DNA of 64,000 nucleotides from an uncultured virus (IMG/VR IMGVR_UViG_3300024520_000058) (taxonomy: Duplodnaviria; Heunggongvirae; Uroviricota; Caudoviricetes): the IMG/VR virus record IMGVR_UViG_3300024520_000058; one strand, given 5' to 3'. This document shows, piece by piece, positions 630 to 49,326 of this stretch (positions are counted from its first letter, which is position 1; each line of letters starts with the position of its first letter). The notes beneath the pieces are model-generated. The model was given only the letters and a program-made list of their open reading frames with translations. It had not been told where the DNA came from and did not search any database. The position numbers and the translations under genes are program-made.

Positions 630-977
630 TCAAGACTCCACCTCCGCTACATACCCCGACTCGCTTATCACATCCGTGATGTGCCTTAAACGAGTGTTAA
701 GATCCCTCTGACGCCTCGTGTAGTCTACCCGGAGCTGACTCAGAAGAGATCTAATCATCGGCACTGTCAGATCCACATTAGCCGAGGCATCTTTCCCTGT
801 TATTACCATCTCTATTACAATCACATCACCTGCCCTGCGATCAAACACATAACCTACACTGTCAGATGCAAGATTCGCCTGAAGCGTGTTCAGGGCATCC
901 CTGTATCTTGACTCACTCCAATCGGGCTGCTGTCCAACATTCTGAGCTTCCTTGCCATCAGCTAACTTCATATTCAT
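630..977 (-). CDS. hypothetical protein
   Basis: ORF in the - strand operon. ATG at 977 (MNMKLADG) is preceded by GAGGATGGAGG. Confidence 0.6.
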   Translation of the reverse strand: MNMKLADGKEAQNVGQQPDWSESRYRDALNTLQANLASDSVGYVFDRRAGDVIVIEMVITGKDASANVDLTVPMIRSLLSQLRVDYTRRQRDLNTRLRHITDVISESGYVAEVES

Positions 978-1080
978 CCTCCATCCTCGGAACGCCACAC
1001 AAGGTAAACACCATCGCACCGAAAAGCTGTTTCAACCTAGTGGTCTTACCTGAAGCTACTCCACCTGAAATTATACGCAT
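958..1080 (-). CDS. 40-aa ORF containing only a Walker A P-loop (possible gene relic)
   Basis: Manual translation MRIISGGVASGKTTRLKQLFGAMVFTLCGVPRMEDEYEVS*, with a GAGGAG SD upstream. Below the ORF-track cutoff. Confidence 0.45.
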   Translation of the reverse strand: MRIISGGVASGKTTRLKQLFGAMVFTLCGVPRMEDEYEVS

Positions 1081-2218: not shown

Positions 2219-2788
2219 TCAAAATGCTTGCGATTGCTTGAGGTTATTCCATATCTCAGTCAACTGTTCTATACTCCAGCCGCGTGCACCCAACATAGTG
2301 AGAAATCGCTCTATTGCAGCGATTGGCGTCATGTTATCACTGCCAACATTGACATTGACGTTGACATTCTCTGTCTGATGTTTAGGCGTATATATGCCTT
2401 GTACCTCTAATCCAAGTCTTATTGCTCCAATTTTCTCATTCTTTGCCGCCTTGACTAATGCAGTATAGAATACTTGACTATCCTGCATAAATAACTCATG
2501 TAGAATGGATTGTTTACACGCTTTATATGCCCTTGACCTATGAGCATAATACACTGTTTGCACGTGTATTTTGAGTTTTTTTGCTATCTGCGCTATGGTA
2601 CGCGAAGATTCTGACATGAAGTCGTATATTTCCTCATGTAATATCAGGATTTGGTTTTTTGGTAGGTCTATCAGTTTAGTATGAGATTCTATAATATCAT
2701 CGGCGGCGGCTTTGTCCAGCTTGTTTTTGTCCAGTCTTTTGGCAAGTGTATTCTGTTTTGGCAGCTTGAAATCTTCATCTTGTGGCAT
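2219..2788 (-). CDS. putative terminase small subunit (phBC6A51-like HTH protein)
   Basis: HTH TIAQIAKKLKIHVQTVY, then the helical VFYTALVKAAKNEKIGAIRLGLEVQGIYTPK and a beta tail NVNVNV. This is the usual TerS layout. GGGAG SD. Confidence 0.6.
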   Translation of the reverse strand: MPQDEDFKLPKQNTLAKRLDKNKLDKAAADDIIESHTKLIDLPKNQILILHEEIYDFMSESSRTIAQIAKKLKIHVQTVYYAHRSRAYKACKQSILHELFMQDSQVFYTALVKAAKNEKIGAIRLGLEVQGIYTPKHQTENVNVNVNVGSDNMTPIAAIERFLTMLGARGWSIEQLTEIWNNLKQSQAF

Positions 2789-3147
2789 AATAATACTCCC
2801 GTAGGTTTAGGGTTACACCTTAATCATACCATGAATATTGACAAAAAGCGATCACAAATCGCACACATTGGTTTAGACTGTTGGTATCAGTGTGTTTGTG
2901 GCATGGCGGTGGTATGATTTGTCATGTCTGATTGGTGGTAAACACCACGCTTCGCAGTGGCTATGACTGAGTTACTGTCAATGTGATCACTTTTCGCAGT
3001 GGGGTGATCACTTTATGATCCCTTTTGGCTTCGTAGGATCGGTATTATGGCGGTGTTTATGGCATGCTTTGGCAAGTGATGGCGTAGGCATTCAGGCAGT
3101 GATGTCAACGGTTTAGCTCATGTGTGGCGGTGGTGGTTTTGGAGTCT

Positions 3148-3163
3148 TGGCATGACTCTAGCA
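3148..3163 (+). promoter_or_regulatory. sigma54-type (-24/-12) promoter
   Basis: TGGCATG-ACTC-TAGCA against consensus TGGCACG-N4-TTGCW, with exact GG-N10-GC spacing. Predicted +1 is near 3174, where the structured region begins. Confidence 0.55.
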
Positions 3164-3173
3164 ATATTGGACG

Positions 3174-4035
3174 GCGTCCGTCGGCTGATGGCAATCAGTC
3201 ATACAGGACACGAAAGACCTGCAATAGGTCAAGCGAGGTAACGACTCTACAAACAGCAAAGTTTAGGTAGCACACACGCATGGATCACCATGCGGATGGC
3301 ATTGGACACCATCGGAGCATCCTGTGGCTAGTCAGTAGAGCAATCGCCAAACGGTAATACCAGTGAACCGACCCGTAAACCTGCGGACGTGCGAAACTCG
3401 TACCACAGGTAGCCGTGTGAATAGCGGTGGGTAGGGATGGAGCATCATTTGAGCATTCGATGGTGTGCAATCCCACACGAAAAATCACTGATCATAGGTC
3501 TGCGAATAGACTTTAGATGGAAACATCACGACTTATCATCACATGAGTCATCCCATTTGGAGTTGTTGGCACGTTGTCGTTTTTCCCTGTTTTTAGAATA
3601 CGTTCCTCAGACGTTGTGAGACAGTGGAAACGCCTCAAAAAAAGCGTATAGCACGTGTCAATCAGTCAAGCACACTTGACATAGACGAGCAGACACCTCA
3701 GCGAATTAGGTCAAGGCAAACTTGACTGACAACGAAAAGTATTTTGTGGTACGCTTGCGCGGAAGCACAGTACACCTCTGATAGGCGTTCTGGCTGAGGG
3801 TAGTCGTGGAAACCTTGACACCTTGATATATGTTCCAACATTAAAACAGAATACACTTGCCGAATACAGTTAAGCATAAACTTGCCGCTTGACTGGTTTA
3901 ACCAAATCCCAGAAACCATTATATATCACACAGTCAACGAAGATATGTAGACATACCACGACAGCAATATAGGGAATAAGTGACGGAGACTTGAGTTTGT
4001 CACGTGTCAGAAAGGTTCTGGCAGTCCTGCGACTC
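3174..4035 (+). ncRNA. large (~860 nt) structured non-coding RNA, class unassigned
   Basis: No credible ORF. Dense hairpins: 3216-3230, 3277-3294, 3516-3527 (GAAA loop), 3665-3680, 3709-3727, 4005-4023. Long-range pairs: 3204-3209/4024-4029, 3321-3327/3403-3409, 3572-3578/3728-3734, 3696-3702/3793-3799, 3803-3809/3956-3962. Confidence 0.7.
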
Positions 4036-4062
4036 AAAAACACAAATCGGCGTTGGTTCTGT

Positions 4063-4071
4063 TGGTATAAT
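4063..4071 (+). promoter_or_regulatory. extended -10 promoter for the early operon
   Basis: TGG-TATAAT about 30 nt upstream of the AAAGGGGAA SD and ATG 4102. Confidence 0.55.
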
Positions 4072-4101
4072 TGACAGTAATCACCAGTAAAGGGGAACAT
4101 A

Positions 4102-4284
4102 ATGCCAAAGTACGTAAATCCGTGTCGTTTAGTAAAGGCAGAGTCACGGATCACTCGGCGTCGTTTGAAGGAACTGATCGACAGCCATGATCGTGATTTT
4201 GTGAAGTTGAGGATTTCTCAGATCGAGAGTCCTCTGGTACGTGCAGAGGCACGTAAGTATTTACGTGCCTGTTATGTGGCATAG
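4102..4284 (+). CDS. small basic early protein
   Basis: ORF with an AAAGGGG SD. First gene of the + arm. Confidence 0.65.
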   Translation: MPKYVNPCRLVKAESRITRRRLKELIDSHDRDFVKLRISQIESPLVRAEARKYLRACYVA

Positions 4285-4303
4285 CCACAGAGAGGATTGA
4301 ACA

Positions 4304-5041
4304 ATGGGAGCGTTAGCGCAGCTATTTGGAGAGGAAAGAGCGAAGGGTACGAAAGTCACTACTAAACCAGCGAAAGCCACAGCTAAGGCTAAGGTGAAAC
4401 CTGCGAAGTCCAGCGATGGACGCAAAAAGGTATGCAGTAAGTGTGGGAGCGAAGTATGGGCAATGCACACGAAGGAAGGGCTTTGCAAAGCATGTCAGGC
4501 AGTGACATCAGCAAAGGCTAAAACAGCGAAAGCTACACCAGCAAAGCGGTCAACGACGACCGGGAAGGAAACGACGATGGCACGTAGAAGTAAATTGAGA
4601 GCGTCAAAAGAGATCAAGGCGACCGACTGGCATGACAAAGAGCCTTCGTTTGCCCAGACCAGCAGGTTGAAAAACGAGACAGGTCGTTTGCTGGACGAGC
4701 CGAACCTCAAGACCTGGGGCTTGGAGATGACACGTTTGGAGGCAAGTGAGTTGATCAGCATGTGCGCTGATGGGAATCAAGCTGAGGTACGTGAGATTCT
4801 GATAAACGACTATGATGCTCCTTTGTGGAAGTCTAAGGCTAAGCCTGGGAAGTCCACGAAGAAGGCGAAAACGGCTTCCACACGCAAAGTGGAGACTAAA
4901 CCATCGAAGGCAGAACCGGCAGACCCGCCCGAAGAGGACTATGTTGCTATCATAGCGGCATTGAAAAAGAAAGCGGCTGGCCTGAAGGGAGCTAACACTC
5001 GTCTGATAAACGAGAAGAACGCCAGAGAGGAGGCTGCATAA
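4304..5041 (+). CDS. Lys/Ala-rich protein with Zn ribbon (possible DNA-binding protein)
   Basis: CSKC...CKAC motif flanked by KPAKATAKAK-type low-complexity tracts. GAGAGGA SD. Confidence 0.75.
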   Translation: MGALAQLFGEERAKGTKVTTKPAKATAKAKVKPAKSSDGRKKVCSKCGSEVWAMHTKEGLCKACQAVTSAKAKTAKATPAKRSTTTGKETTMARRSKLRASKEIKATDWHDKEPSFAQTSRLKNETGRLLDEPNLKTWGLEMTRLEASELISMCADGNQAEVREILINDYDAPLWKSKAKPGKSTKKAKTASTRKVETKPSKAEPADPPEEDYVAIIAALKKKAAGLKGANTRLINEKNAREEAA

Positions 5042-5253
5042 TGGCATTGGATGGAGCATACGTAGTAATTCACGTAAAGAGTGGTTTCAGTAGCTACTGT
5101 GAGGCTTACGGCAGTTTGCCAGAGGCACAGCTTGCCTATGAAGAGCGCAAAGCGACCTTTAACTCAAATGACGATCATCTGAGAATCGTAGATGGACATG
5201 GCTGGCTGATAGATGAAGCAAGGGAAGAGGACGACCCAAACTACATAGCATAG
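5041..5253 (+). CDS. hypothetical early protein
   Basis: TAATG coupling with the upstream gene and a GGAGG SD. Confidence 0.7.
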   Translation: MALDGAYVVIHVKSGFSSYCEAYGSLPEAQLAYEERKATFNSNDDHLRIVDGHGWLIDEAREEDDPNYIA

Positions 5254-5257
5254 AATT

Positions 5258-5524
5258 TGGAGATGGGCACGTTGTGCGGCTGCCCTTCCACACGTTAGAC
5301 GTGAGAGAGGCAAGGTGATGATATGCAACGGGCAGGATAACGACCTGCTGACAGTAGGGTGACCGACTACCAGGTACGTGACAGAGAGGCAGGTGAGAGT
5401 CTCATGCCGGTATAAACAGGCGAGCCTGCGACCGTAAAAATCACAAGGTGGGAGAGTTGGTCGCTCCCACCAAGCGGATATAGATAGCGACGTGTGGGTA
5501 TGCTGGATTCCGCTGACGCCCACA
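5258..5524 (+). ncRNA. structured RNA resembling the RNase P specificity domain
   Basis: Intergenic. Hairpins at 5258-5290, 5332-5348, 5354-5370 (GTGA loop), 5388-5408 and 5447-5471. Joiners GTGACAGAGA and GGTATAAAC flank the 5388-5408 helix. Confidence 0.55.
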
Positions 5525-5560
5525 CCAGCGCAAGTAAGCACGAACGAACGGAGGTTCAGC

Positions 5561-5695
5561 ATTTGCTCTGAGTGTGACGCCAAGACTTACGATGGCGAGG
5601 GCAAGCACAGCGTAGGAGCTGAGACACAGTGGTCAGAGGATGCTGACCCTTACTGTCCAGCGTGTTTCACTAAACTACAGGAGAAAGAGAGGTGA
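5561..5695 (+). CDS. small Zn-finger protein (start uncertain)
   Basis: CSEC...YCPAC motif. The best SD (GGAGG 5550-5554) points to ATT 5561, while the ORF track starts at GTG 5492. Confidence 0.55.
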   Translation: MCSECDAKTYDGEGKHSVGAETQWSEDADPYCPACFTKLQEKER

Positions 5696-5701
5696 GAACG
5701 A

Positions 5702-5923
5702 ATGACGTACAATCTTAACACCCACAGGAGTGAAGTGATAACAGAGCTACATCAAATCTTCCCGATGAAAACATCCTGTGAGATCGTGGATAAGCTGATA
5801 GAGCGTGGATGCCAGGCAGTAAGGATTGACATTGACGAAGATAGCGAGATAACGCTACGGGTAGGGATAATAGGCATCAAGGACTATTTTCGCTACAGTG
5901 AGGGCAATAAGCCGAAGGAGTGA
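5702..5923 (+). CDS. hypothetical early protein
   Basis: GAGGTGA SD; tightly packed + operon. Confidence 0.65.
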   Translation: MTYNLNTHRSEVITELHQIFPMKTSCEIVDKLIERGCQAVRIDIDEDSEITLRVGIIGIKDYFRYSEGNKPKE

Positions 5924-5929
5924 GCTGAA

Positions 5930-6346
5930 ATGATGAGCATCTTTCACAGTGAGATACCCAAGACAGACCACAACCATGAGTTGGTTGTCCAGGTTGCTCG
6001 GCTCTTGAATGAGAGCGACGTGTACCAGTGTACCTTTGTGGCATCACAGGGCAAGCTGCTCAGTATGCACGATTACAGTGAAGGTGGCTTTGAGGGAGGT
6101 GGGTACTATTACGATAGCTGGAGCTGTATACATGGTCTTTTGGAGAACATCCACGGCACGTATCACAGGCCTGGCAAGTTGGAGCGTTTGGCGGTGAAGT
6201 ACAGGTTTCTTGAGCAGATCAATCGGAAGCTGAATGAGAAGTCTGCCAGTCTTTGGGATGATTTTGAGCGTGTAGTACGCGAGCGTGACGAGGCGCGGCG
6301 CGCCATAATACACATGGAGGTAGAGCGATGCAAGAGCGAGGCTTAA
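5930..6346 (+). CDS. hypothetical protein with C-terminal coiled coil
   Basis: GGGAG SD; ERDEARR coiled-coil motif. Confidence 0.7.
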   Translation: MMSIFHSEIPKTDHNHELVVQVARLLNESDVYQCTFVASQGKLLSMHDYSEGGFEGGGYYYDSWSCIHGLLENIHGTYHRPGKLERLAVKYRFLEQINRKLNEKSASLWDDFERVVRERDEARRAIIHMEVERCKSEA

Positions 6347-40994: not shown

Positions 40995-41558
40995 TCATCG
41001 TGGAAATCCCTCCTCAGCAATCCACAGGTCGCCAATTACTTCCTTGATAGTAACCAGTGGCTCCAGCTGCTCTTTCACACCTTCCCAGGCGAAGTCATGT
41101 CCGCAAAGGATCCCACCAGGAGCGATCTTGGGAGACCAGACCTGAACGTCGTGGCCAACCAGCCTGTGATCAGAGTCCACAATCACGGCATATACGCTGC
41201 CATCTGTAAAGAGCGTTGCAGCGTCATCGCAAAGCATCCTGAGATAACATTCTCCGGTAAGACCTGGCTCCCACCACAAGGGAAATCGGTTCCGCTCTTG
41301 CATATTCTCCATGAACTCCAGGAAGATGTCTACGGTCAAAACGTCGCTGTGCGAGGTATGCCGCAGGTCTGGCTGCCCCAGCCACGTGTCCACTGTGCAT
41401 ACGCTTTGCTCGTCGTGCATAGCGTGGTATAGACGGTCAGTAGTCCTGCCCCTCCATGCCCCCAGCTCCACGATTACTGCATCGTCCGGCGCGTCAACAA
41501 CCAGCTGGTAGAGATAATCAAGTTCCTCATCGCCCATCCAGCCCTGTATTTCATCCAT
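40995..41558 (-). CDS. SAM-dependent methyltransferase (Methyltransf_24-like)
   Basis: IQGWM..E, IVELGAWRGRTT, VDTW, VDSDH and PGGILCGHD motifs. Confidence 0.9.
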   Translation of the reverse strand: MDEIQGWMGDEELDYLYQLVVDAPDDAVIVELGAWRGRTTDRLYHAMHDEQSVCTVDTWLGQPDLRHTSHSDVLTVDIFLEFMENMQERNRFPLWWEPGLTGECYLRMLCDDAATLFTDGSVYAVIVDSDHRLVGHDVQVWSPKIAPGGILCGHDFAWEGVKEQLEPLVTIKEVIGDLWIAEEGFPR

Positions 41559-42411
41559 TTGCCTTTACCCTCATCTTTGTACTACAGTACTTGCATAGGG
41601 GAAGCTCATCTGACTCACCGCTGAGATGCTTCTCCTGATAGTAGCGACGCAGTTTATGTTCCAGGACCTGCTCCAAACTAATGGAGTTAAGGTTCCCGAA
41701 AGTTATGTCTCCATGTGCGTCTACACAACAGAGACAGACAGTGCCATCAAACATAACATCAACTTCATGTAATATTCTGAAGCAAGGTGGGGTCTCCATA
41801 GGGACGCCTTCTGCCTGCAAGGTCCTGTTGGTACGGAATCCATCGATGCTCCCTGCCCACTCCATGAAACGAGCAGTGCCGACACCCGCGAAACCCATGT
41901 CAGCCCACAGCTCCTTGAACCTCGCGTTGTGTTCAGGATACTTCTTCTCGTCTGCCAGGCTATAGATATTCACCTTGATCGGATTGTCTACCATGAAATT
42001 CCTTATACGCTCACTTACAGTATCAAAATCCAGCCCCATCATTGATTCGTAGGACTCTTTATCATAGCCATGAAAGCTTATGGTAAAGTCACAGTATATA
42101 TCCGCGTACTCTTTCAACCTTTCAGCTATCTTGGGTACCAACCCGGAGCCATTCGTGTAGATGGAAACTTTAGCTTCCTTCTCTCTCAAATAGTCCATCC
42201 ATTGAAACAGACGCGGAAATAATAACGGGTCTCCCAATCGGAAGAGCGTAAAAGCCCGACAGCCCAGCTTTACAGCCTGGTCAACGATACTGGTGAAGAG
42301 ACCATAGTCCATCATCCCGCTCCTGCTGATCTCGGAATGTGGACACATCCTACACCTGGCGTTACACAGCGTAGAGGACTCTATGTGAACGTATTGGAGT
42401 TCCTGGTCCAT
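41551..42411 (-). CDS. radical SAM protein with SPASM/twitch domain
   Basis: ESSTLCNARCRMCP, GDPLL, YTNG, and C-terminal PC..DGTVCLCC.D..GNL..CKYC. Confidence 0.92.
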   Translation of the reverse strand: MDQELQYVHIESSTLCNARCRMCPHSEISRSGMMDYGLFTSIVDQAVKLGCRAFTLFRLGDPLLFPRLFQWMDYLREKEAKVSIYTNGSGLVPKIAERLKEYADIYCDFTISFHGYDKESYESMMGLDFDTVSERIRNFMVDNPIKVNIYSLADEKKYPEHNARFKELWADMGFAGVGTARFMEWAGSIDGFRTNRTLQAEGVPMETPPCFRILHEVDVMFDGTVCLCCVDAHGDITFGNLNSISLEQVLEHKLRRYYQEKHLSGESDELPLCKYCSTKMRVKANG

Positions 42412-43399
42412 CCATCGTCTCCTGAAAAAATAGCGACACATCGCGAGGTATCCGGTCGCTGGACGGGACCTCTCGCGTATCCAGAACTGCAAATGCCTTT
42501 CGGTGGTCATTGAAGTAGGCGTTGTTTTTTAGACAAGACCCCCCTGTCCTCGCGTAGAATGGTATCCCTGCCATTTCACTGAACACGGAGGAATGGTATC
42601 TGTAGCTAACTACTCCCTGCAGCAAAGAATAAACTCCAAGCATCACGCGTGGACTGCCAGGATATGGCAAACACTTGTACCGCTTAAACAGCTCTGGAGC
42701 CAGGTCGCCCAGGGATGAATAGATTATCTCTCCCTTCGCTACTTCGTTTGCCAGATTGTCTATAAGATGCCTAACGTGCGGCAAGTGAAGTACATTGAAA
42801 TGGTTCAGCAAAGCTTTCGCTATGGCAACAGGTTCCTGGAAGTTAGCTATACCTCCTGCAGTAGCCAACCCGATTATAGGAAGGCTGTCTTCATACATTG
42901 GCATAATGGCCTGTGCTCCATCCATTTCTGGTATCATACGAAAGGCAAAGTCGTCAAACACCTGGGGCTCAAACCCCATCTTCCGAGCAATCGCTTGTGA
43001 CTCGCTGCTACGAACAGTGAATCGTTCGCATTTGCTGAACAACTCAGAGACACGATGATAGCATTCTCTTGGAACTGTTTCTAATCCAATACGTTCAACA
43101 GTCACAGTCACTCCCTGCTCAATAGCTCTGTCAGCAATAACACCCGCGCGGTCGCATATATGATCATCATAGAACAGTCCTCCTCCACCGATCACCAGTC
43201 TCTTGGCATCAGAGGCGAAGCCATTGGCAATAAGTTCCAGTTCCCCAATGGAATGCCGGTATGTTGGCTGCCGAACATACACCTGCACAACCTCATACTG
43301 CGGCAGGTATTGATCCAGGAGGCCCTCAAAGATGGCATCATCACCTAAGTTTCCTGTCCCATAGCATCCAAAAGCGTATAACAGACCTTTGCTACCCAT
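42362..43399 (-). CDS. polysaccharide pyruvyl transferase family protein
   Basis: GCYGTGNLGDDAI, IGGGGLF, TVRS..S and SYRYHS motifs. Confidence 0.88.
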   Translation of the reverse strand: MGSKGLLYAFGCYGTGNLGDDAIFEGLLDQYLPQYEVVQVYVRQPTYRHSIGELELIANGFASDAKRLVIGGGGLFYDDHICDRAGVIADRAIEQGVTVTVERIGLETVPRECYHRVSELFSKCERFTVRSSESQAIARKMGFEPQVFDDFAFRMIPEMDGAQAIMPMYEDSLPIIGLATAGGIANFQEPVAIAKALLNHFNVLHLPHVRHLIDNLANEVAKGEIIYSSLGDLAPELFKRYKCLPYPGSPRVMLGVYSLLQGVVSYRYHSSVFSEMAGIPFYARTGGSCLKNNAYFNDHRKAFAVLDTREVPSSDRIPRDVSLFFQETMDGPGTPIRSHRVLYAV

Positions 43400-43400
43400 T

Positions 43401-44150
43401 CTATACTCCTATCGTTACCGAATGCCCATGCTGCAGATAGCCATATTCCTGCATGATTTCACCAGCTTCACCCCATATTGTATCCAGGAAGCCTTGGCCT
43501 ACCAGGGGGTCTCGCTGCCACTTGAGACAATGAGCATTATATCGCTCAGCGCCAGAGGCAAAGACAACCTGCTGAAACCCGAATAGCTCTCTTACGTCGG
43601 GCTTGACCATATCACGGCTTCTTATAACTTTCGGTATTTTCTCCACAGGTACTACGTTAAGAAACTCCAGAATACCTTCCAAAGTCTCAATAGGTGAAAG
43701 GCATAGGCGCTCATACTGCACAATATGAGGGCCGTATTTCAGAAATGCGCTGAAGTAGTCTGTCCACATCCTGGCACTATTAGCGGTCAGTTCTCGGTTG
43801 GCGACAAGTTCCTCAACTGTCTCCACCTTACCCTCGACCTCCCGTTTATACATGTCCGACAGTATGCAATCCCGGGGGTCTCTCAGAAGCAGGATATAGG
43901 TGCCTTTGTCACCCAGAATCTTCCATCTGTCCAGGTGGGCCACAAACAGAAATACATCGGCAAGACCCACTCCGTGGTTAAGAGGCTCCACCCCCTGCAC
44001 AACCACGCGGCCGGTAGCCTTACTGATTAGCGCGGACAGATAGTTCCTGCCACTCCTGGGATATGAGGACATGACGTTGTGCTTGTTCACCACTGCCCAT
44101 TCAGTAAACCGGCGCTCTGCCTGCGTCCTTTCATACTCTGCTTTGTTCAT
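43401..44150 (-). CDS. PAPS-dependent sulfotransferase
   Basis: 5'-PSB loop SYPRSGRNYL, 3'-PB motif LLRDPRDCILS, VQYERL and KWQ. Confidence 0.88.
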   Translation of the reverse strand: MNKAEYERTQAERRFTEWAVVNKHNVMSSYPRSGRNYLSALISKATGRVVVQGVEPLNHGVGLADVFLFVAHLDRWKILGDKGTYILLLRDPRDCILSDMYKREVEGKVETVEELVANRELTANSARMWTDYFSAFLKYGPHIVQYERLCLSPIETLEGILEFLNVVPVEKIPKVIRSRDMVKPDVRELFGFQQVVFASGAERYNAHCLKWQRDPLVGQGFLDTIWGEAGEIMQEYGYLQHGHSVTIGV

Positions 44151-44751
44151 CGTTCCTCTCAAACATTGGCTGAAGATGGCTCTTCTGAATAACAGCTTCT
44201 ATACTCCATTCAGAAGGAGCGTCCTTCCCGCCCCGAATCTCGATCTCACCAGCTCTGTGTACTGGCATGTGGTCACAGCACTCGTTTATGTACCTGATGG
44301 AGCCGCCCGGCAACGTCCCTCGAAGCAGATGATAGAGAGATACCGTATCCGGCGGCTCCGCTTCGAAAGGCAGGAAGTAATGGAAATGACTGCCGTTGTA
44401 GATGGAAGGAAGCGTTAGCTGACGCTCGTAGTAGTCTCGATGCGGCACAAACAGGATCAGATGTCCACCATACTTCAGTATACGCCACCAATTCTGCAAT
44501 CCAGTATGCACGTCCTGGATATGCTCCAAGCAATGTGAGCTGTACACCCAATCATAGTTATTATCCTGAACGCCCTCCATGTGCGTTGCATCTCCGATAA
44601 TCGTAACACCTGGGAGGTCCTGCTTGTCAAAGCCATCTGCTTCAGGCAATATCTTCGCATTATGACATCCTATGTCTATGCCTTTGCCCTGGCAATACTT
44701 CTCAAAGAAGTAGGAGCGCTTACGTCTGGTAACCGCATTGCCTGTACCCAT
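44131..44751 (-). CDS. class I SAM-dependent methyltransferase
   Basis: GKGIDIGC, GDA, YDWVYSSHCLEH and WWRILKYGGHLILFVP motifs. Confidence 0.9.
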   Translation of the reverse strand: MGTGNAVTRRKRSYFFEKYCQGKGIDIGCHNAKILPEADGFDKQDLPGVTIIGDATHMEGVQDNNYDWVYSSHCLEHIQDVHTGLQNWWRILKYGGHLILFVPHRDYYERQLTLPSIYNGSHFHYFLPFEAEPPDTVSLYHLLRGTLPGGSIRYINECCDHMPVHRAGEIEIRGGKDAPSEWSIEAVIQKSHLQPMFERNDEQSRV

Positions 44752-45971
44752 TAGGAGCCCTCCACACGTGTGCGAAACTTCCGCAAGTACCTGTTCATCG
44801 TATTCCACATCCCCATGATCTCTGACCGGGGCAGCTCCGGAGTCTGGTATACAAAACCAGTCTCGTTGTTGCCGTGGATGTAGAAGTAATGGTCGAAGTC
44901 TTCATCCAGGATCAACACCTGTTCGTAGACAGGAGTACCTGGATAGGGTATCAGCGGATAGGCTCTTACGATATCCGGCTGTGCTTCCTCCAGGAAGCTT
45001 ATAGTCTCATAGAAGGTTTCCCAGGTCTCCCCCGGGTACCCGATCACCAACCAGGCCAGAACATCGATGCCCACTTCCTGAAGTTCCTTAATAGCACGAA
45101 GGTTCTGTTCCCTGCTTGTTCTTTTATTCATGGACGTCAACACTCTGTCCGACCCGCTCTCTATCCCGATACACGCGGTCTTACATCCGGTGGCAGCCAG
45201 GAGCTCAGGGAGGCCTTCTTTATAGTCAGCCCGGACGTTGCAGCTATACTGCAGATCCAGGTCCCTGTCCTTCAGGCACTGGAGCGAGAAAAGGTTCGAT
45301 GCAAAGAGATCATCTTTGAAACGGAAACTCACATCTCCATACCTCTTTCGAATGTCAAGGATCTCTCTTACCACAGCACCTGTACTCCGCCGCCTCATAA
45401 CGTGCCCACCAGGTAGCTTGCTACAGAACCCACATTGATATGGGCATCCCCTGCTGGTGAAGATCTGAAACGAAGGCTTGCCCTGATACCTGCGTGTGTA
45501 GCTTGATACGTCTACAAGGGAATAGTCTGGAGCGGGTATGAGGTTTATTGACATCTTATGGCCATGGATAATAGCTTCCCCCTGGCCCAGAGAGACCAGC
45601 TCCAACAGAGCCGACTCTCCTTCGCCAACTATTACATAGTCAAAGTCCATGGAAGTACTCATAGGCATTGCACTGGCATGGGGTCCTCCAGCTACTGTCT
45701 TCACATCCGGATGCAGCTCTTCCACCAGCTCCTTAATTCGAACCGTCCGGTTGTAGCTGGCTGTGTATGTAGAAAACCCATACCAGTCAGCTTCCGGAAA
45801 CTCCCAATCATCTTCTGGAATCCCGGAAAGATCCAGGATCTTCACTTCATACCCGGCCTGCTTCAGAACAGTTCCCAGGTATAATAGACCCATTGGGGGA
45901 TCTAACCTGTCATCCTGAAGCTCCGGCACCGGCGTCTTCACCAGACATATACTGGTCATTAGTTCGATCAT
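44751..45971 (-). CDS. B12-binding radical SAM protein (class B methyltransferase-like)
   Basis: PPMGLLYL, AGGPHAS and VGEGE (cobalamin-binding domain), TSRGCPYQCGFC, GIESGS, IGYPGET and PYPGT. Confidence 0.92.
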   Translation of the reverse strand: MIELMTSICLVKTPVPELQDDRLDPPMGLLYLGTVLKQAGYEVKILDLSGIPEDDWEFPEADWYGFSTYTASYNRTVRIKELVEELHPDVKTVAGGPHASAMPMSTSMDFDYVIVGEGESALLELVSLGQGEAIIHGHKMSINLIPAPDYSLVDVSSYTRRYQGKPSFQIFTSRGCPYQCGFCSKLPGGHVMRRRSTGAVVREILDIRKRYGDVSFRFKDDLFASNLFSLQCLKDRDLDLQYSCNVRADYKEGLPELLAATGCKTACIGIESGSDRVLTSMNKRTSREQNLRAIKELQEVGIDVLAWLVIGYPGETWETFYETISFLEEAQPDIVRAYPLIPYPGTPVYEQVLILDEDFDHYFYIHGNNETGFVYQTPELPRSEIMGMWNTMNRYLRKFRTRVEGS

Positions 45972-46963
45972 GAGCATACCCCCGGGTTACCCACCAGCTT
46001 ACGAGCCTCGTCGTAGGAAATATTAATGGGTTGCTCATCCCACCGATAGTCCATCCAGGGATTACCCTTCATAGCTTTGGGATGCTCTCCCAGAAACGGC
46101 GCTCTGTGATGCGGCTCATGGTTCAGGAAATAATCATGTGTTTCCAGTTTGAACTTCAGCACGTCACCCTGGCCAAATTCGTGACAGACTTTTATCTCAT
46201 TTTCGTTCTTCCATCTGCGGTCTATCATCTCGTATTGCCAGAGCAGCTTCTCCAGGATCCTCTGGATGTCACGGACCAAAGCATAGTGAAATGCAAATCC
46301 TTCGGTCTCAGCGTCAACGTGCTTACTGAGATACTTCCTGCCATCCCATTCCAGATCGTGTTCACGGCTATACCAACGCAGTGCTTTGTCATTATACCCA
46401 TCGTTCACTGCCCATTGCACCTCGAAACATGCTGGAAAGTAGAAAGCCCGCGCATGTGGCTTCCTGAATACCCGCTGATGTGCGGTGAAGAAGATGGTCT
46501 TTTCGTGGTACACGTCATGGTAGAAGACCCGCTCCGGAACGAACATATTGTCGTACTCTCCTTCATCAACCCAGCGGCGAATATTCTTACATAATTTCTT
46601 GGGATAGACTATATCTCCATCCACTACCCAGATATATTCTCCTACCTTCGCAGTATCCACAATCATCTGGTATGGTATGGATTCCGCTCCGTAGATGAAC
46701 CCGGCTGGACAGTGCCGTATCTTCTTATCCGGATCCGGGAAGTTACGAATGATCTCCGTGGTTCCATCCATGGAGAGTCCTGCCGGGGAAACTCGCTCAG
46801 GGAGAATCACTCTCCGCATCGACTCCAAACAATATTCGAATATGACTATCTCATCGGCATAGTCATAGATACTCTTCAGACTTGCCGCCATGAAATCCGC
46901 TTCGTTGAAAACCTTATAGTAAACTACTAACTTATTGCCCTTGCCCTTGTTTCTAAACCGCAT
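45968..46963 (-). CDS. glycosyltransferase, GT-A/GT2-like
   Basis: VFNEADFM..SLKSI..ADEIV, SMDGTTEII and the DxD motif WVVDGD. Confidence 0.85.
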   Translation of the reverse strand: MRFRNKGKGNKLVVYYKVFNEADFMAASLKSIYDYADEIVIFEYCLESMRRVILPERVSPAGLSMDGTTEIIRNFPDPDKKIRHCPAGFIYGAESIPYQMIVDTAKVGEYIWVVDGDIVYPKKLCKNIRRWVDEGEYDNMFVPERVFYHDVYHEKTIFFTAHQRVFRKPHARAFYFPACFEVQWAVNDGYNDKALRWYSREHDLEWDGRKYLSKHVDAETEGFAFHYALVRDIQRILEKLLWQYEMIDRRWKNENEIKVCHEFGQGDVLKFKLETHDYFLNHEPHHRAPFLGEHPKAMKGNPWMDYRWDEQPINISYDEARKLVGNPGVCS

Positions 46964-48767
46964 TGGTATTCTCCTTCGTGGAGCTGGAAGCTTTCAAAAG
47001 CTGATCTATTTGCCTCATTACCTGATCAGCTTTGATGCTCCACATACACATAGGCCACTTCTTGTCGTTGCCTCGACAACAGTGGAGCTGCCAGTCGTTA
47101 CACGCTACACACTTCGCTTTGCCCAGAATGTGGTGAACGGTTGGGTAATGTGCAATCCGCAGATCCGGATGCACTGACCCAAATAGACCCAGAGCCAGGT
47201 TGTTGGTAACACCTGCTATGTGTAATCCACCACTGTCAGGACAGAGCAGAATATTTGCAGCTCCTATCATCCCAACGTATTCCTGGAAGGAAAGTTTCCC
47301 TGTTAGGTTCACCACACTGGCAGGATACTTGAACTCCTGGTCAGATACTGCCACAACGCTATAGCCACGTTTCCTGGCTATCCCAACGAACTCTTTCTGA
47401 CGAGCCATAGGCCACATCCTGGAAGCGCCTTTGGAGTCTGACTGCATCACGATTACTCTCCCATTTCCTGGAACACCATTCTGCTCCAGGATGGCATGGG
47501 CAACCTCCGTCCAGGATTCTGGTATCTGGAACTGCCAATCAGTGCTATAATCTACCTGGTCCAGACCAATCGCCCTGGCAAACAGCAGAGCCCTGGGAAC
47601 CTCGCTTGTCTCCGTTCCAAAATCGATGGCGTTTATGGTATTGTAAATCGTGTGATAGTTCGTATAATCGTGACCACCAGGCGGAAGCGGCAGTCCAGCT
47701 GTACCGTGTTCATAATCCATCGTCAACACGTGGTCAACCACTCCTGACAATCTGACCAATTCCCCAACACCCGGCGAGGTCATATACACAATCACCATGT
47801 TGGGATACATCTTCTTCAGAGTTGCCAGCGCCGGTAGGCTGCTTAGCACATCACCAACTCCGCGGAAGCGTATGAACAATGCCCAAAGTTCCTCACTTTC
47901 CTCTTTCTTCCCAAAGGCTACCGGTATTGTCTTCCTGGGAAGAAGAAGGTGTTTATCCAGCTCCCTCAAAGCACTTCGAAGTGAGATGCCCAGGATGCCG
48001 CGACGTAACGTAAAGTTATCGCTCTCCAGGACGGTCGCTGTTGGATAGTTCTCATACAGGTCACTGAACAGAGAGAAACACATCACAGTGGTCTCAGTGC
48101 CCAGAGCTGCGGAGATATGAGATAATCCTGTATCAGGCCCAAACACAACGTCCATCATGGCTAATCCCTGCATCACATCTCGTAGGGGCCTGTCCAGAAA
48201 GAAATGCGCCCCTGGTGGTATGGAAGCCGCTGTAGCTCCAGAAATCCCCTTCGCAAATACAAACACATCGAACTCTTTCCGCTTTATGAGAGTTCGTATG
48301 AAGCCTATAGTATACGCCCAATCCTTTGCCCTTTGTTTTGACCTCAGTATCACACCAACGCATGGTCTGTTAAACCATTTCCGCATCTTACGAACTTCAT
48401 TCCACTCCGGAGCTGTGAGATAAAGCTTCGGGTAATCCATGACTCTAGGGAACCCGGCGGCCTCCCACATACGAAGGTTCTTCCCGGGAAGAAATCTTTC
48501 TCCACCCTCGTCTTTTTCGGTAGATGCTATGGCTTCGTTGATGTTAATAATCTTTGTATCTTCCGGTATCTGCTCCAGGCTGGTCATCCCCTGTACTATG
48601 GGGTGCCCTTCGAAGAGCTCCGGATGATTTGATAAGATGTAGCTCTTATCTTTCACCGCTGACATCCTGGCTATTGGCTCTAACAATACGTTATCTCCTA
48701 ACCATAGGAGATTAGGATACGCCAAAGCCGGAATGCGTATAGTTGATCCTATCAAACTTTCAGACAC
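46953..48767 (-). CDS. tandem double GT9 (heptosyltransferase-like) glycosyltransferase
   Basis: Two GT9 modules: LGDNVL...GPDTGLSHISAALG and RGVGDVL...CPDSGGLHIAG..GLFG..P..R. GTG start at 48767 with GGAGG SD. Confidence 0.88.
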   Translation of the reverse strand: MSESLIGSTIRIPALAYPNLLWLGDNVLLEPIARMSAVKDKSYILSNHPELFEGHPIVQGMTSLEQIPEDTKIININEAIASTEKDEGGERFLPGKNLRMWEAAGFPRVMDYPKLYLTAPEWNEVRKMRKWFNRPCVGVILRSKQRAKDWAYTIGFIRTLIKRKEFDVFVFAKGISGATAASIPPGAHFFLDRPLRDVMQGLAMMDVVFGPDTGLSHISAALGTETTVMCFSLFSDLYENYPTATVLESDNFTLRRGILGISLRSALRELDKHLLLPRKTIPVAFGKKEESEELWALFIRFRGVGDVLSSLPALATLKKMYPNMVIVYMTSPGVGELVRLSGVVDHVLTMDYEHGTAGLPLPPGGHDYTNYHTIYNTINAIDFGTETSEVPRALLFARAIGLDQVDYSTDWQFQIPESWTEVAHAILEQNGVPGNGRVIVMQSDSKGASRMWPMARQKEFVGIARKRGYSVVAVSDQEFKYPASVVNLTGKLSFQEYVGMIGAANILLCPDSGGLHIAGVTNNLALGLFGSVHPDLRIAHYPTVHHILGKAKCVACNDWQLHCCRGNDKKWPMCMWSIKADQVMRQIDQLLKASSSTKENTNAV

Positions 48768-48790
48768 AGCATTTGCCTCCTGTGTATAGA

Positions 48791-48816
48791 AGTGAGGGGA
48801 GACAGCTCCCCTCACT
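48791..48816 (-). terminator. hairpin after the capsid/decoration genes
   Basis: AGTGAGGGGAG-CTGT-CTCCCCTCACT, a perfect 11-bp stem. Confidence 0.65.
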
Positions 48817-48834
48817 GGTTTTGTATGCCCTGTG

Positions 48835-49326
48835 TTAGACCGGGCAGTTGATGAAAAAGCTGCCAATGGCAATAGCGGTACCTACGTCCACTATCCTGGA
48901 TGTTCCCACTGGTACCCTCTGGCCACTTGCCCAGAGAATTATGGTCCCATCGCCAGTTGAAAGGACACAAACTCCGTCCCTGGTGACAGAGCCATCACTG
49001 GTTATGGCAATCTTATTCAGACCCTTGGAGTGTGCAAAGCCAAACTCGCCATCGGCAAGAGTAGCCTGCAACTGACCCACAGGTTTATTTACCAACACAT
49101 CCGTGTCGTCCAGGTCAGCTGTAGCTTCCCACGGTTCCTTGGTAGGATCCGCTAAAGCTACGAACAGACCTGCAGTTCCGGCCACTGAGCCTGCGCCCTC
49201 GTAATACTTGATGTAGACAAACTCGTTTCCCATCTCGTCGAAATACTTCTGGCCGGGACGGAATCGTCTCGCATCAGTATACACGCCGTTGACTATGGCT
49301 CCAGTTACATACGGTGCAGCTCCCAT
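48835..49326 (-). CDS. capsid decoration/cement protein
   Basis: Directly after the MCP. GNEFVYIK and DGEFGFAHSKG pattern. AAGGAGG SD. Confidence 0.65.
   Translation of the reverse strand: MGAAPYVTGAIVNGVYTDARRFRPGQKYFDEMGNEFVYIKYYEGAGSVAGTAGLFVALADPTKEPWEATADLDDTDVLVNKPVGQLQATLADGEFGFAHSKGLNKIAITSDGSVTRDGVCVLSTGDGTIILWASGQRVPVGTSRIVDVGTAIAIGSFFINCPV

Follow-up and report, generated by a model that had tools for sequence, protein, structure and literature searches.

An early-operon element of an uncultured phage that is built like RNase P RNA and probably does not work like one

Introduction

RNase P RNA, the oldest multi-turnover ribozyme, is defined by its P4 active site. The locus described here raises the question of what an RNA that sets out many of the parts of RNase P RNA in their usual order may be doing in the early operon of a phage, and whether it should be called RNase P RNA at all. 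The first-pass annotation of this DNA had read the element as an RNase P specificity domain without the catalytic core, and had proposed that it binds the tRNA elbow. Our analysis leads to a different view. The element is not to be filed as RNase P RNA, since two defining features that we tested for were not found; it has the build of one but probably not its working. All positions refer to the window, which covers the initial 64 kb of a virus record of 72,848 nt (completeness 63%, CheckV), and all features of the window lie on the plus strand unless stated.

The locus and its setting

The element, a predicted RNase P-like RNA fold of 270 nt (5258..5527), takes up most of the non-coding gap 5254-5549 within a run of tightly packed small early genes, and was rightly described as embedded among early genes; of the extent first given, 5258-5524, the start holds and the 3' end is moved to 5527. 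Upstream lie a 245-aa early ORF of unassigned function (4304..5041), whose homolog anchors the related locus L026 discussed below, and a 70-aa ORF (5041..5253), whose stop falls 5 nt upstream of the first conserved block. Downstream come the next ribosome site (5550-54) and a small Cys-rich ORF (5550..5695) with a probable ATT start at 5561. Directly before the element there is no promoter-like site of its own; three such sites occur within 2700-6000, where 4.1 are expected by chance, the last at 3823-52. The element's letters are identical in contigs of two further studies (X3, covering 5314-5894, and X5, covering 5116-5344), and contig X1 spans it whole, but X1 may be the source of the record.

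The record is present in seawater metagenomes, and the datasets listed as containing the phage include no RNA sequencing run. The genome carries a terminase, a P22-like portal, DnaB and a beta clamp, and the contig ends share a repeat of only 104 nt. Among the DnaB relatives, a cluster at 46% identity includes a member named Ca. Poribacteria, which is a hint only as to the host; none of five candidate host genomes had a DnaB more than 53% identical to the Poribacteria protein. ARAGORN at default settings calls no tRNA gene in the 73-kb record, itself 63% complete, and three weak ones at relaxed settings; no RnpA gene was found in the same record.

Some further observations concern the surroundings. 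A small family without a name, counting 18 representatives, includes the 245-aa ORF; its members share a W-H..Q-T..L-K-T-W core between flanks of low complexity. At 5561 and 6864, an in-frame ATT or ATC comes after a strong ribosome site, which suggests non-standard starts for small early genes. A second structured stretch, 3270-3500, with a folding z of -1.79 and no Rfam match, has an 18-nt inverted repeat (3297-3314/3458-3475) at its closure and lies ahead of the early operon; it is probably the RNA that the first-pass annotation had counted as its first. A 22-nt inverted repeat (2738-2759/3843-3864, 95% complementary, 1,083 nt apart) flanks the region between divergent gene blocks. On the minus strand, 41551-48872 holds genes for radical SAM/SPASM and B12-binding radical SAM proteins, a pyruvyl transferase and a GT9 glycosyltransferase amid virion genes.

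Resemblance to RNase P RNA along the whole element

Mapped by hand, the element resembles a whole RNase P RNA without P13, P14 and P18, and traces of each of the five conserved regions lie in register; helix names and many of the residue roles follow what we take to be the anatomy of such RNAs. P1 would close the two ends (5' strand 5258..5267, partner 5519-5527, 3+4 bp), followed by the 5' strand of P2 (5268..5275, partner 5487-5494), a single G5276, and a P3-like hairpin (5277..5317) whose 5' extension pairs with a trace of CR-I (5307..5319, 7/11 over 5307-17). The S-domain-like region (5328..5435), with no P13/P14, consists of P7 (5328-31/5432-35), P8 (5332-48), P9 (5354-70), P10/11 (5371-74/5425-28), J11/12 (5375-87), P12 (5388-5408) and J12/13 (5409-24), and all five of its helices, P7-P12, can form. 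Beyond it come the 3' strand of P5 and, by eye, a CAA joiner as in J5/15 (5440..5446, partner 5315-19 or 5319-22), an 8-bp hairpin in the P15 position (5447..5471), a CR-IV-like joiner immediately 5' of the P2 3' strand (5481..5487, 8.8 bits), and a trace of CR-V (5502..5517, 10/16 against the consensus) just 5' of the P1 3' strand.

The motifs quoted by the first-pass annotation are all present in the order it gave (5328, 5332-48, 5354-70, 5371, 5375-87, 5388/5405, 5409-24, 5425 and 5432), and its further hairpin at 5447-71, with the loop at 5459 and the loop partner at 5429, lies where it was placed. The pairing it proposed between that loop and 5429-33 has its partner, but the loop has a stronger one in a 12-bp helix, 5357-68/5455-66. 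Its reading as a specificity domain was sound in seeing a resemblance to RNase P that goes beyond chance, and too narrow, as the resemblance extends past that domain; and it overstated the absence of the catalytic core, for although there is no working P4, P1, P2, P3, CR-IV and traces of CR-I and CR-V are all in register.

Order and spacing are like those of bacterial RNase P RNA (RF00010) for P1, P2, the single G, P3, P5, P7-P12, CAA, P15 with GGU, CR-IV and CR-V; the L8 and L9 loops are also alike, as is the size of ~270 nt. The closest forms are short Chloroflexota RNase P RNAs without P13/P14 (L250-L255, L281-L333) and the reduced RNase P RNAs described from the CPR (PMC8172020), and loss of helices such as P13, P14 and P18 is found in natural RNase P RNAs (PMC8172020). 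Unlike RNase P RNA, however, the element has a broken P4 with the bulged U replaced, a CR-III without UG..A and, ahead of P5', four additional A; both of its P4 strands are hidden by rival helices, it escapes every model, and it sits within the early operon of a phage in which no tRNA genes were found.

Model searches and the contribution of chance

The check that had been proposed along with the first reading came out negative: the RNase P covariance models (RF00010, RF00011, RF00373) gave no match on the genome, with controls scoring positive, and an all-Rfam search of the element was empty both at the gathering threshold and at E 10. An nhmmer profile from 80 RNase P loci chosen with the element's own motifs (80/120 parsed) missed it, as did one from 15 short-form RNase P RNAs. 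An S-domain covariance model, R1, was built from 20 S-domains without P13/P14 (20 of the 33 extracted from 59 loci); the element is not among its 10 hits down to 6.1 bits, and unrelated real S-domains score 34-51 bits.

We also scored motif chains, that is, weight matrices of conserved blocks taken in order, trained on the 45-49 of 103 unselected RNase P loci that parsed, with spacer ranges widened and helix thresholds set after the element had been seen. The genome background was 69,279 nt for the short-form profile, chain, five-helix and L026-alignment tests, and the whole record for the test of P1 and P2 in register. With the five-block S-domain chain, the element ranks 1st of 460 bins of its own genome, and one of 7,972 bins from other phages scores higher; with the nine-block chain it ranks 1st of 8,342 phage bins, narrowly (45.8 vs 45.2 bits for the next), against 117-143 for real RNase P RNAs. 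The automatic trace agrees with the hand assignment for seven of the nine blocks (5307, 5335, 5357, 5376, 5409, 5481 and 5502), the other two having fallen elsewhere with low scores, and none of 4,000 dinucleotide shuffles reached the element's chain score. Among the 750 bins scoring at least 18 (of 8,414), the element alone has all five S-domain helices, a test passed by only 13 of 49 real RNase P RNAs. P2 of at least 6 and P1 of at least 4 pairs in register are seen in 35/45 real RNase P RNAs and in 27 of 1,313 phage bins scoring at least 20, the element being the top scorer of the 27. Because ranges and thresholds were set post hoc and so few real RNAs pass the five-helix test, these chain and helix figures are not clean p-values. 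The ordered set of RNase P-like motifs exceeds chance expectation, and we think it probable, if far from certain, that the element descends from an RNase P RNA without P13, P14 and P18.

A separately encoded catalytic half was also considered and rejected: two-mismatch matches to CR-I and CR-V are scattered, with none in the gap, and Rfam gave no match of note in 2790-4110. Likenesses to tmRNA, the cobalamin riboswitch, a group II intron, 6S and SRP RNA were weighed by eye and dropped, and the all-Rfam search was negative. Separately, the phylum sample around G001 contains long RNase P RNAs that fall below the Rfam cut-off, G016:C92:23340-23775 (73 bits) and G029:C473:12210-12643 (64 bits).

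The active site, the T-loops and the fold

The stability of the fold is not above chance (z = -1.22; 22 of 200 shuffles fold equally well). In the predicted ensemble P8, P10/11, P12 and P2 each get at most 0.04; of the model's helices, the 8-bp hairpin (0.99) and P1, which closes the ends (0.63-0.68), are the only ones favoured. The complete RNase P-like model lies 15 kcal/mol over the predicted minimum; the S-domain model lies 6.4 kcal/mol over it, within the 5-19 of 20 real S-domains. CR-IV followed by P2, with P1 closing the ends, is an arrangement that can form; P2 is not favoured in the ensemble.

The P4 active-site helix holds 11 of the 21 universal nucleotides of RNase P RNA (PMC4919922). 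No such helix, built from CR-I and CR-V and keeping the conserved nucleotides and the bulged U, was found in the element: in register only 4 pairs form, with a G replacing the bulged U. P3 absorbs the CR-I trace, and a rival helix of 6 bp (5473-78/5509-14, spanning 5473..5514), with a probability of 0.93-0.99, takes up the CR-V trace. An alternative P4 without a bulge (5326-32/5509-15) has 6/7 pairs, but clashes with P7 and P8. Given the 4 pairs, the missing bulged U and a stronger rival partner for each P4 strand, we infer that pre-tRNA cleavage has been lost and the active site dismantled. As a separate observation by eye, the rival helix and its inner stem (5473-5514) look K-turn-like, with a 3-nt bulge and tandem G-A, against what we take to be the K-turn consensus.

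The double T-loop of RNase P requires both an AG..A and a UG..A core (PMC3664808). The first, in CR-II, is present in J11/12 at 5383-87. The second, in CR-III, is absent: there is no UG at 5409-17, and the J12/13 block scores 0.3 bits. This segment may instead be a hairpin loop (0.52), as is its look-alike in L026 (0.99). The apex of Stem I of T-box leaders (RF00230) is alike in having AG..A in a bulge and UG..A, the latter found inside the element's P12 loop; in the element, however, the UG..A lies on the loop's 5' side, neither a specifier nor an antiterminator is seen, and the T-box model RF00230 gives no match to it. Finally, the GGU of L15 pairs with RCCA in real RNase P enzymes (PMC4919922). 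The P15-like loop of the element has GGU at 5459-61; it sits on an 8-bp stem (pair probability 0.99) and has strong rival partners within the RNA.

A related locus with a predicted hammerhead

A single homolog was found, on the metagenome contig L026, through alignment of the upstream ORF (one of 108 candidate stretches). There, a different small ORF, an unrelated one of 65 aa that likewise stops 5 nt before the first conserved block, is followed by the element's first ~100 nt. Local alignment of the element with the 5' part of L026 scores 44, against a shuffle maximum of 26, and the common part covers 5250..5352 in the window and 828-932 in L026 (65/107 columns; blocks 23/29 and 22/27). Because these 5' blocks are 79-81% identical, while the fourfold-degenerate sites of the shared ORF agree at only 16/40, their conservation points to selection. 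On the 3' side of the shared block there is no similarity between them (a score as good came from 137 of 2,000 shuffles), and with one homolog and a dissimilar 3' part there is no covariation for the 3' two-thirds of the element. The S-domain chain score of L026 is 11.5, with a background median of 10.8, and both joiners are absent from it. By eye, one short helix may covary (window 5371-74/5425-28, L026 930-33/963-66), which we do not count because the alignment at that place is not significant.

The shared 5' part alone folds as one long imperfect stem-loop in both loci. It hides a motif resembling the phage's ribosome sites, followed by an ATG and a Gln codon, with a stop within 2-5 codons: a putative mini-ORF Met-Gln-Arg-Ala-Gly-stop in the window (5323..5340) and Met-Gln-stop in L026. 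The indel between the two sequences falls in the spacer ahead of the ATG. Since a ribosome-site motif and a Met-Gln mini-ORF lie there, the CR-I-like block, which is kept in L026, has a second, plainer reading and can equally be read as the phage's ribosome-binding motif.

The search for further relatives covered several sources. Candidates from pattern scans (17 viral, 6 of one coding family, 4 more) were all judged by their flanks to be chance, and the pattern scan of genome contigs found no homolog of the element; neither did protein-anchored viral scans with the HTH gene, the terminase and two upstream-ORF alignments. The DnaB scan reached at least 80 distant phages (31-39% identical among the matches listed) and was used solely as background. 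A model of the shared 5' block, R2, matched nothing in the window but its own source, and nothing in 37 viral records, drawn from 44 of the 80 DnaB-scan loci, a search run without a positive control. BLAST against annotated phages gave two weak chance matches for the window and none for L026, and four sequencing runs contained no L026-type contig over the element.

In L026, a predicted type II hammerhead occupies the 3' half of this gap: 961-1033 (+) matches Hammerhead_II (RF02276) with 35.8 bits and E 2.5e-5, below the gathering cut-off of 37. It makes up the 3' 73 nt, and its cut would fall 62 nt upstream of the next ATG. It is predicted to have a U3-A8 core swap and a loop pseudoknot, both described in active natural hammerhead variants by Perreault et al. 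(PMC3088659). The window has no hammerhead core, and models of hammerhead II, pistol, twister-sister, hatchet and twister-P1 give no match in the phage genome. An upstream helix in L026 (930-33/963-66, probability 0.98) covers part of the hammerhead core and could be an off switch.

In the window, an alternative local hairpin with a G-C opening followed by ACCA (5494..5527) is a candidate substrate of host RNase P, of which a G-C-opened helix followed by free RCCA would be expected; the predicted cut, at 5493/5494, lies 68 nt upstream of the next start. The pattern has 17 occurrences in the genome, a chance of 0.035 per 300-nt bin; two bases of the ACCA are paired in the preferred fold, and the hairpin competes with P1 and P2.

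Possible roles of the element

We tentatively favour a role on the phage's own message, in which a likely RNase P-derived, catalytically dismantled fold acts in cis on the early mRNA as a processing or stability module. The choice of a cis role over a grip on tRNA follows from the predicted hammerhead in the same slot of the relative, and that of processing or stabilising from the presence of a predicted RNA cutter there and of an ACCA hairpin similarly positioned here. The element would be transcribed as part of the polycistronic early operon message and cut near its 3' end, ~60-70 nt upstream of the next start codon, by a host nuclease in the window, with the G-C hairpin and ACCA at 5494-5527 as the candidate host RNase P site, and by the hammerhead in L026; the common 5' stem-loop, hiding the ribosome site and the Met-Gln mini-ORF, would then protect the upstream fragment or act on it as a switch. 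Known substrates of host RNase P include mRNAs and RNAs induced by phages (PMC4919922), and self-cleaving RNAs near phage genes have been proposed to process polycistronic messages (PMC6765202; PMC3088659). The hammerhead of L026 may be the functional counterpart of the element's 3' part, although the same slot is no proof of the same job.

The stand-alone elbow binder of the first-pass annotation, a decoy, protector or sensor with interdigitated T-loops, now appears very unlikely. The S-domain order and helices and the AG..A core of J11/12 are as it would have them, but it has to do without the UG..A core that the double T-loop calls for (PMC3664808) and without a T-box match, and 5409-17 in J12/13 may instead be a hairpin loop, as its look-alike in L026 is. 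Conservation of the joiners, which had been set beforehand as its test, fails in the only homolog (one sequence), which carries a predicted hammerhead instead; elbow binding through interdigitated T-loops is thus not supported. More weight attaches to the possibility, itself on the unlikely side, that the likeness to RNase P arose by chance or is what a decayed relic still shows, that the part that matters is confined to the 5' ~100 nt, a stem-loop hiding a ribosome site and mini-ORF, and that the remainder consists of unrelated local hairpins. The failure of all Rfam, nhmmer and R1 models, the unremarkable z, the retention of the 5' part alone in L026, the ribosome-site motif in the conserved block and the indel placed before its ATG all fit such a reading, and very many windows were read, so that rare look-alikes are expected to surface; against it, a single 270-nt intergenic gap contains the motif order, the five S-domain helices and P1/P2 in register, and it is the 5' block common to L026 that supplies the P1 and P2 strands. 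A decayed protein gene is barely credible. L026 has an ORF (835-1149) open across its element, with several differences at third codon positions, and by eye a few changes look synonymous; yet the window has two frame-shifting indels and stops, there is no protein relative at E 1 and no PHROG match, and the hammerhead lies inside the L026 open frame.

Two further readings give the RNase P parts an active role. RnpA binds the RNase P RNA region around P2/P3, CR-IV and J5/15, and the best-kept parts of the element are P2/P3, CR-IV, the CAA joiner and the P15 loop with GGU; a released, catalytically dead RNA could therefore act in trans, luring away host RnpA or, through the L15-type pairing with RCCA (PMC4919922), the 3' CCA of pre-tRNA, and so slow host tRNA maturation early in infection. 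The phage has no tRNA genes found that would need processing, P1 closes the ends, and there is a precedent in the inactive RNase P-like RNA of camelpox, discussed as a decoy (PMC3001073). We regard this as unlikely, given that L026 keeps the 5' block without the remainder, that the loop on the 8-bp P15 stem has strong partners inside the RNA and that no promoter-like site precedes the element. The camelpox RNA is likewise viral and structurally RNase P-like, with pre-tRNA processing not expected of it, but it comes from a eukaryotic virus and has been expressed and tested, whereas the element is phage-borne and predicted, and the two are compared by description only (PMC3001073). A still-active ribozyme, in which a captured RNase P core has had its P4 rewritten, cleaves the early message of the phage itself and can be swapped for a hammerhead, is quite improbable. 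The bulge-less P4 with 6/7 pairs, the hammerhead in the slot of L026 and the discovery of new ribozyme classes in such contexts (PMC6765202) speak for it, and the clash of that P4 with P7 and P8, the poor in-register P4, the lack of a matching P4 in L026 and the lack of any match to the small-ribozyme models in the genome speak against it; if true, it would be the first natural RNase P-derived self-processing RNA.

Implications

We found no RNase P-like RNA with such a build reported from a phage in open-access main texts; lists of orphan RNA motifs in supplements or subscription papers could include it. If the likeness is chance, it would show that RNase P matches made by eye may satisfy motif-order tests yet fail every model. 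The hammerhead in the relative's slot offers a direct test case for a function of self-cleaving RNAs in phages and of the elements that stand in for them. Should the descent be real, a natural copy of RNase P RNA would have kept its scaffold, shed its active site and been reused in a phage as an mRNA element or decoy.
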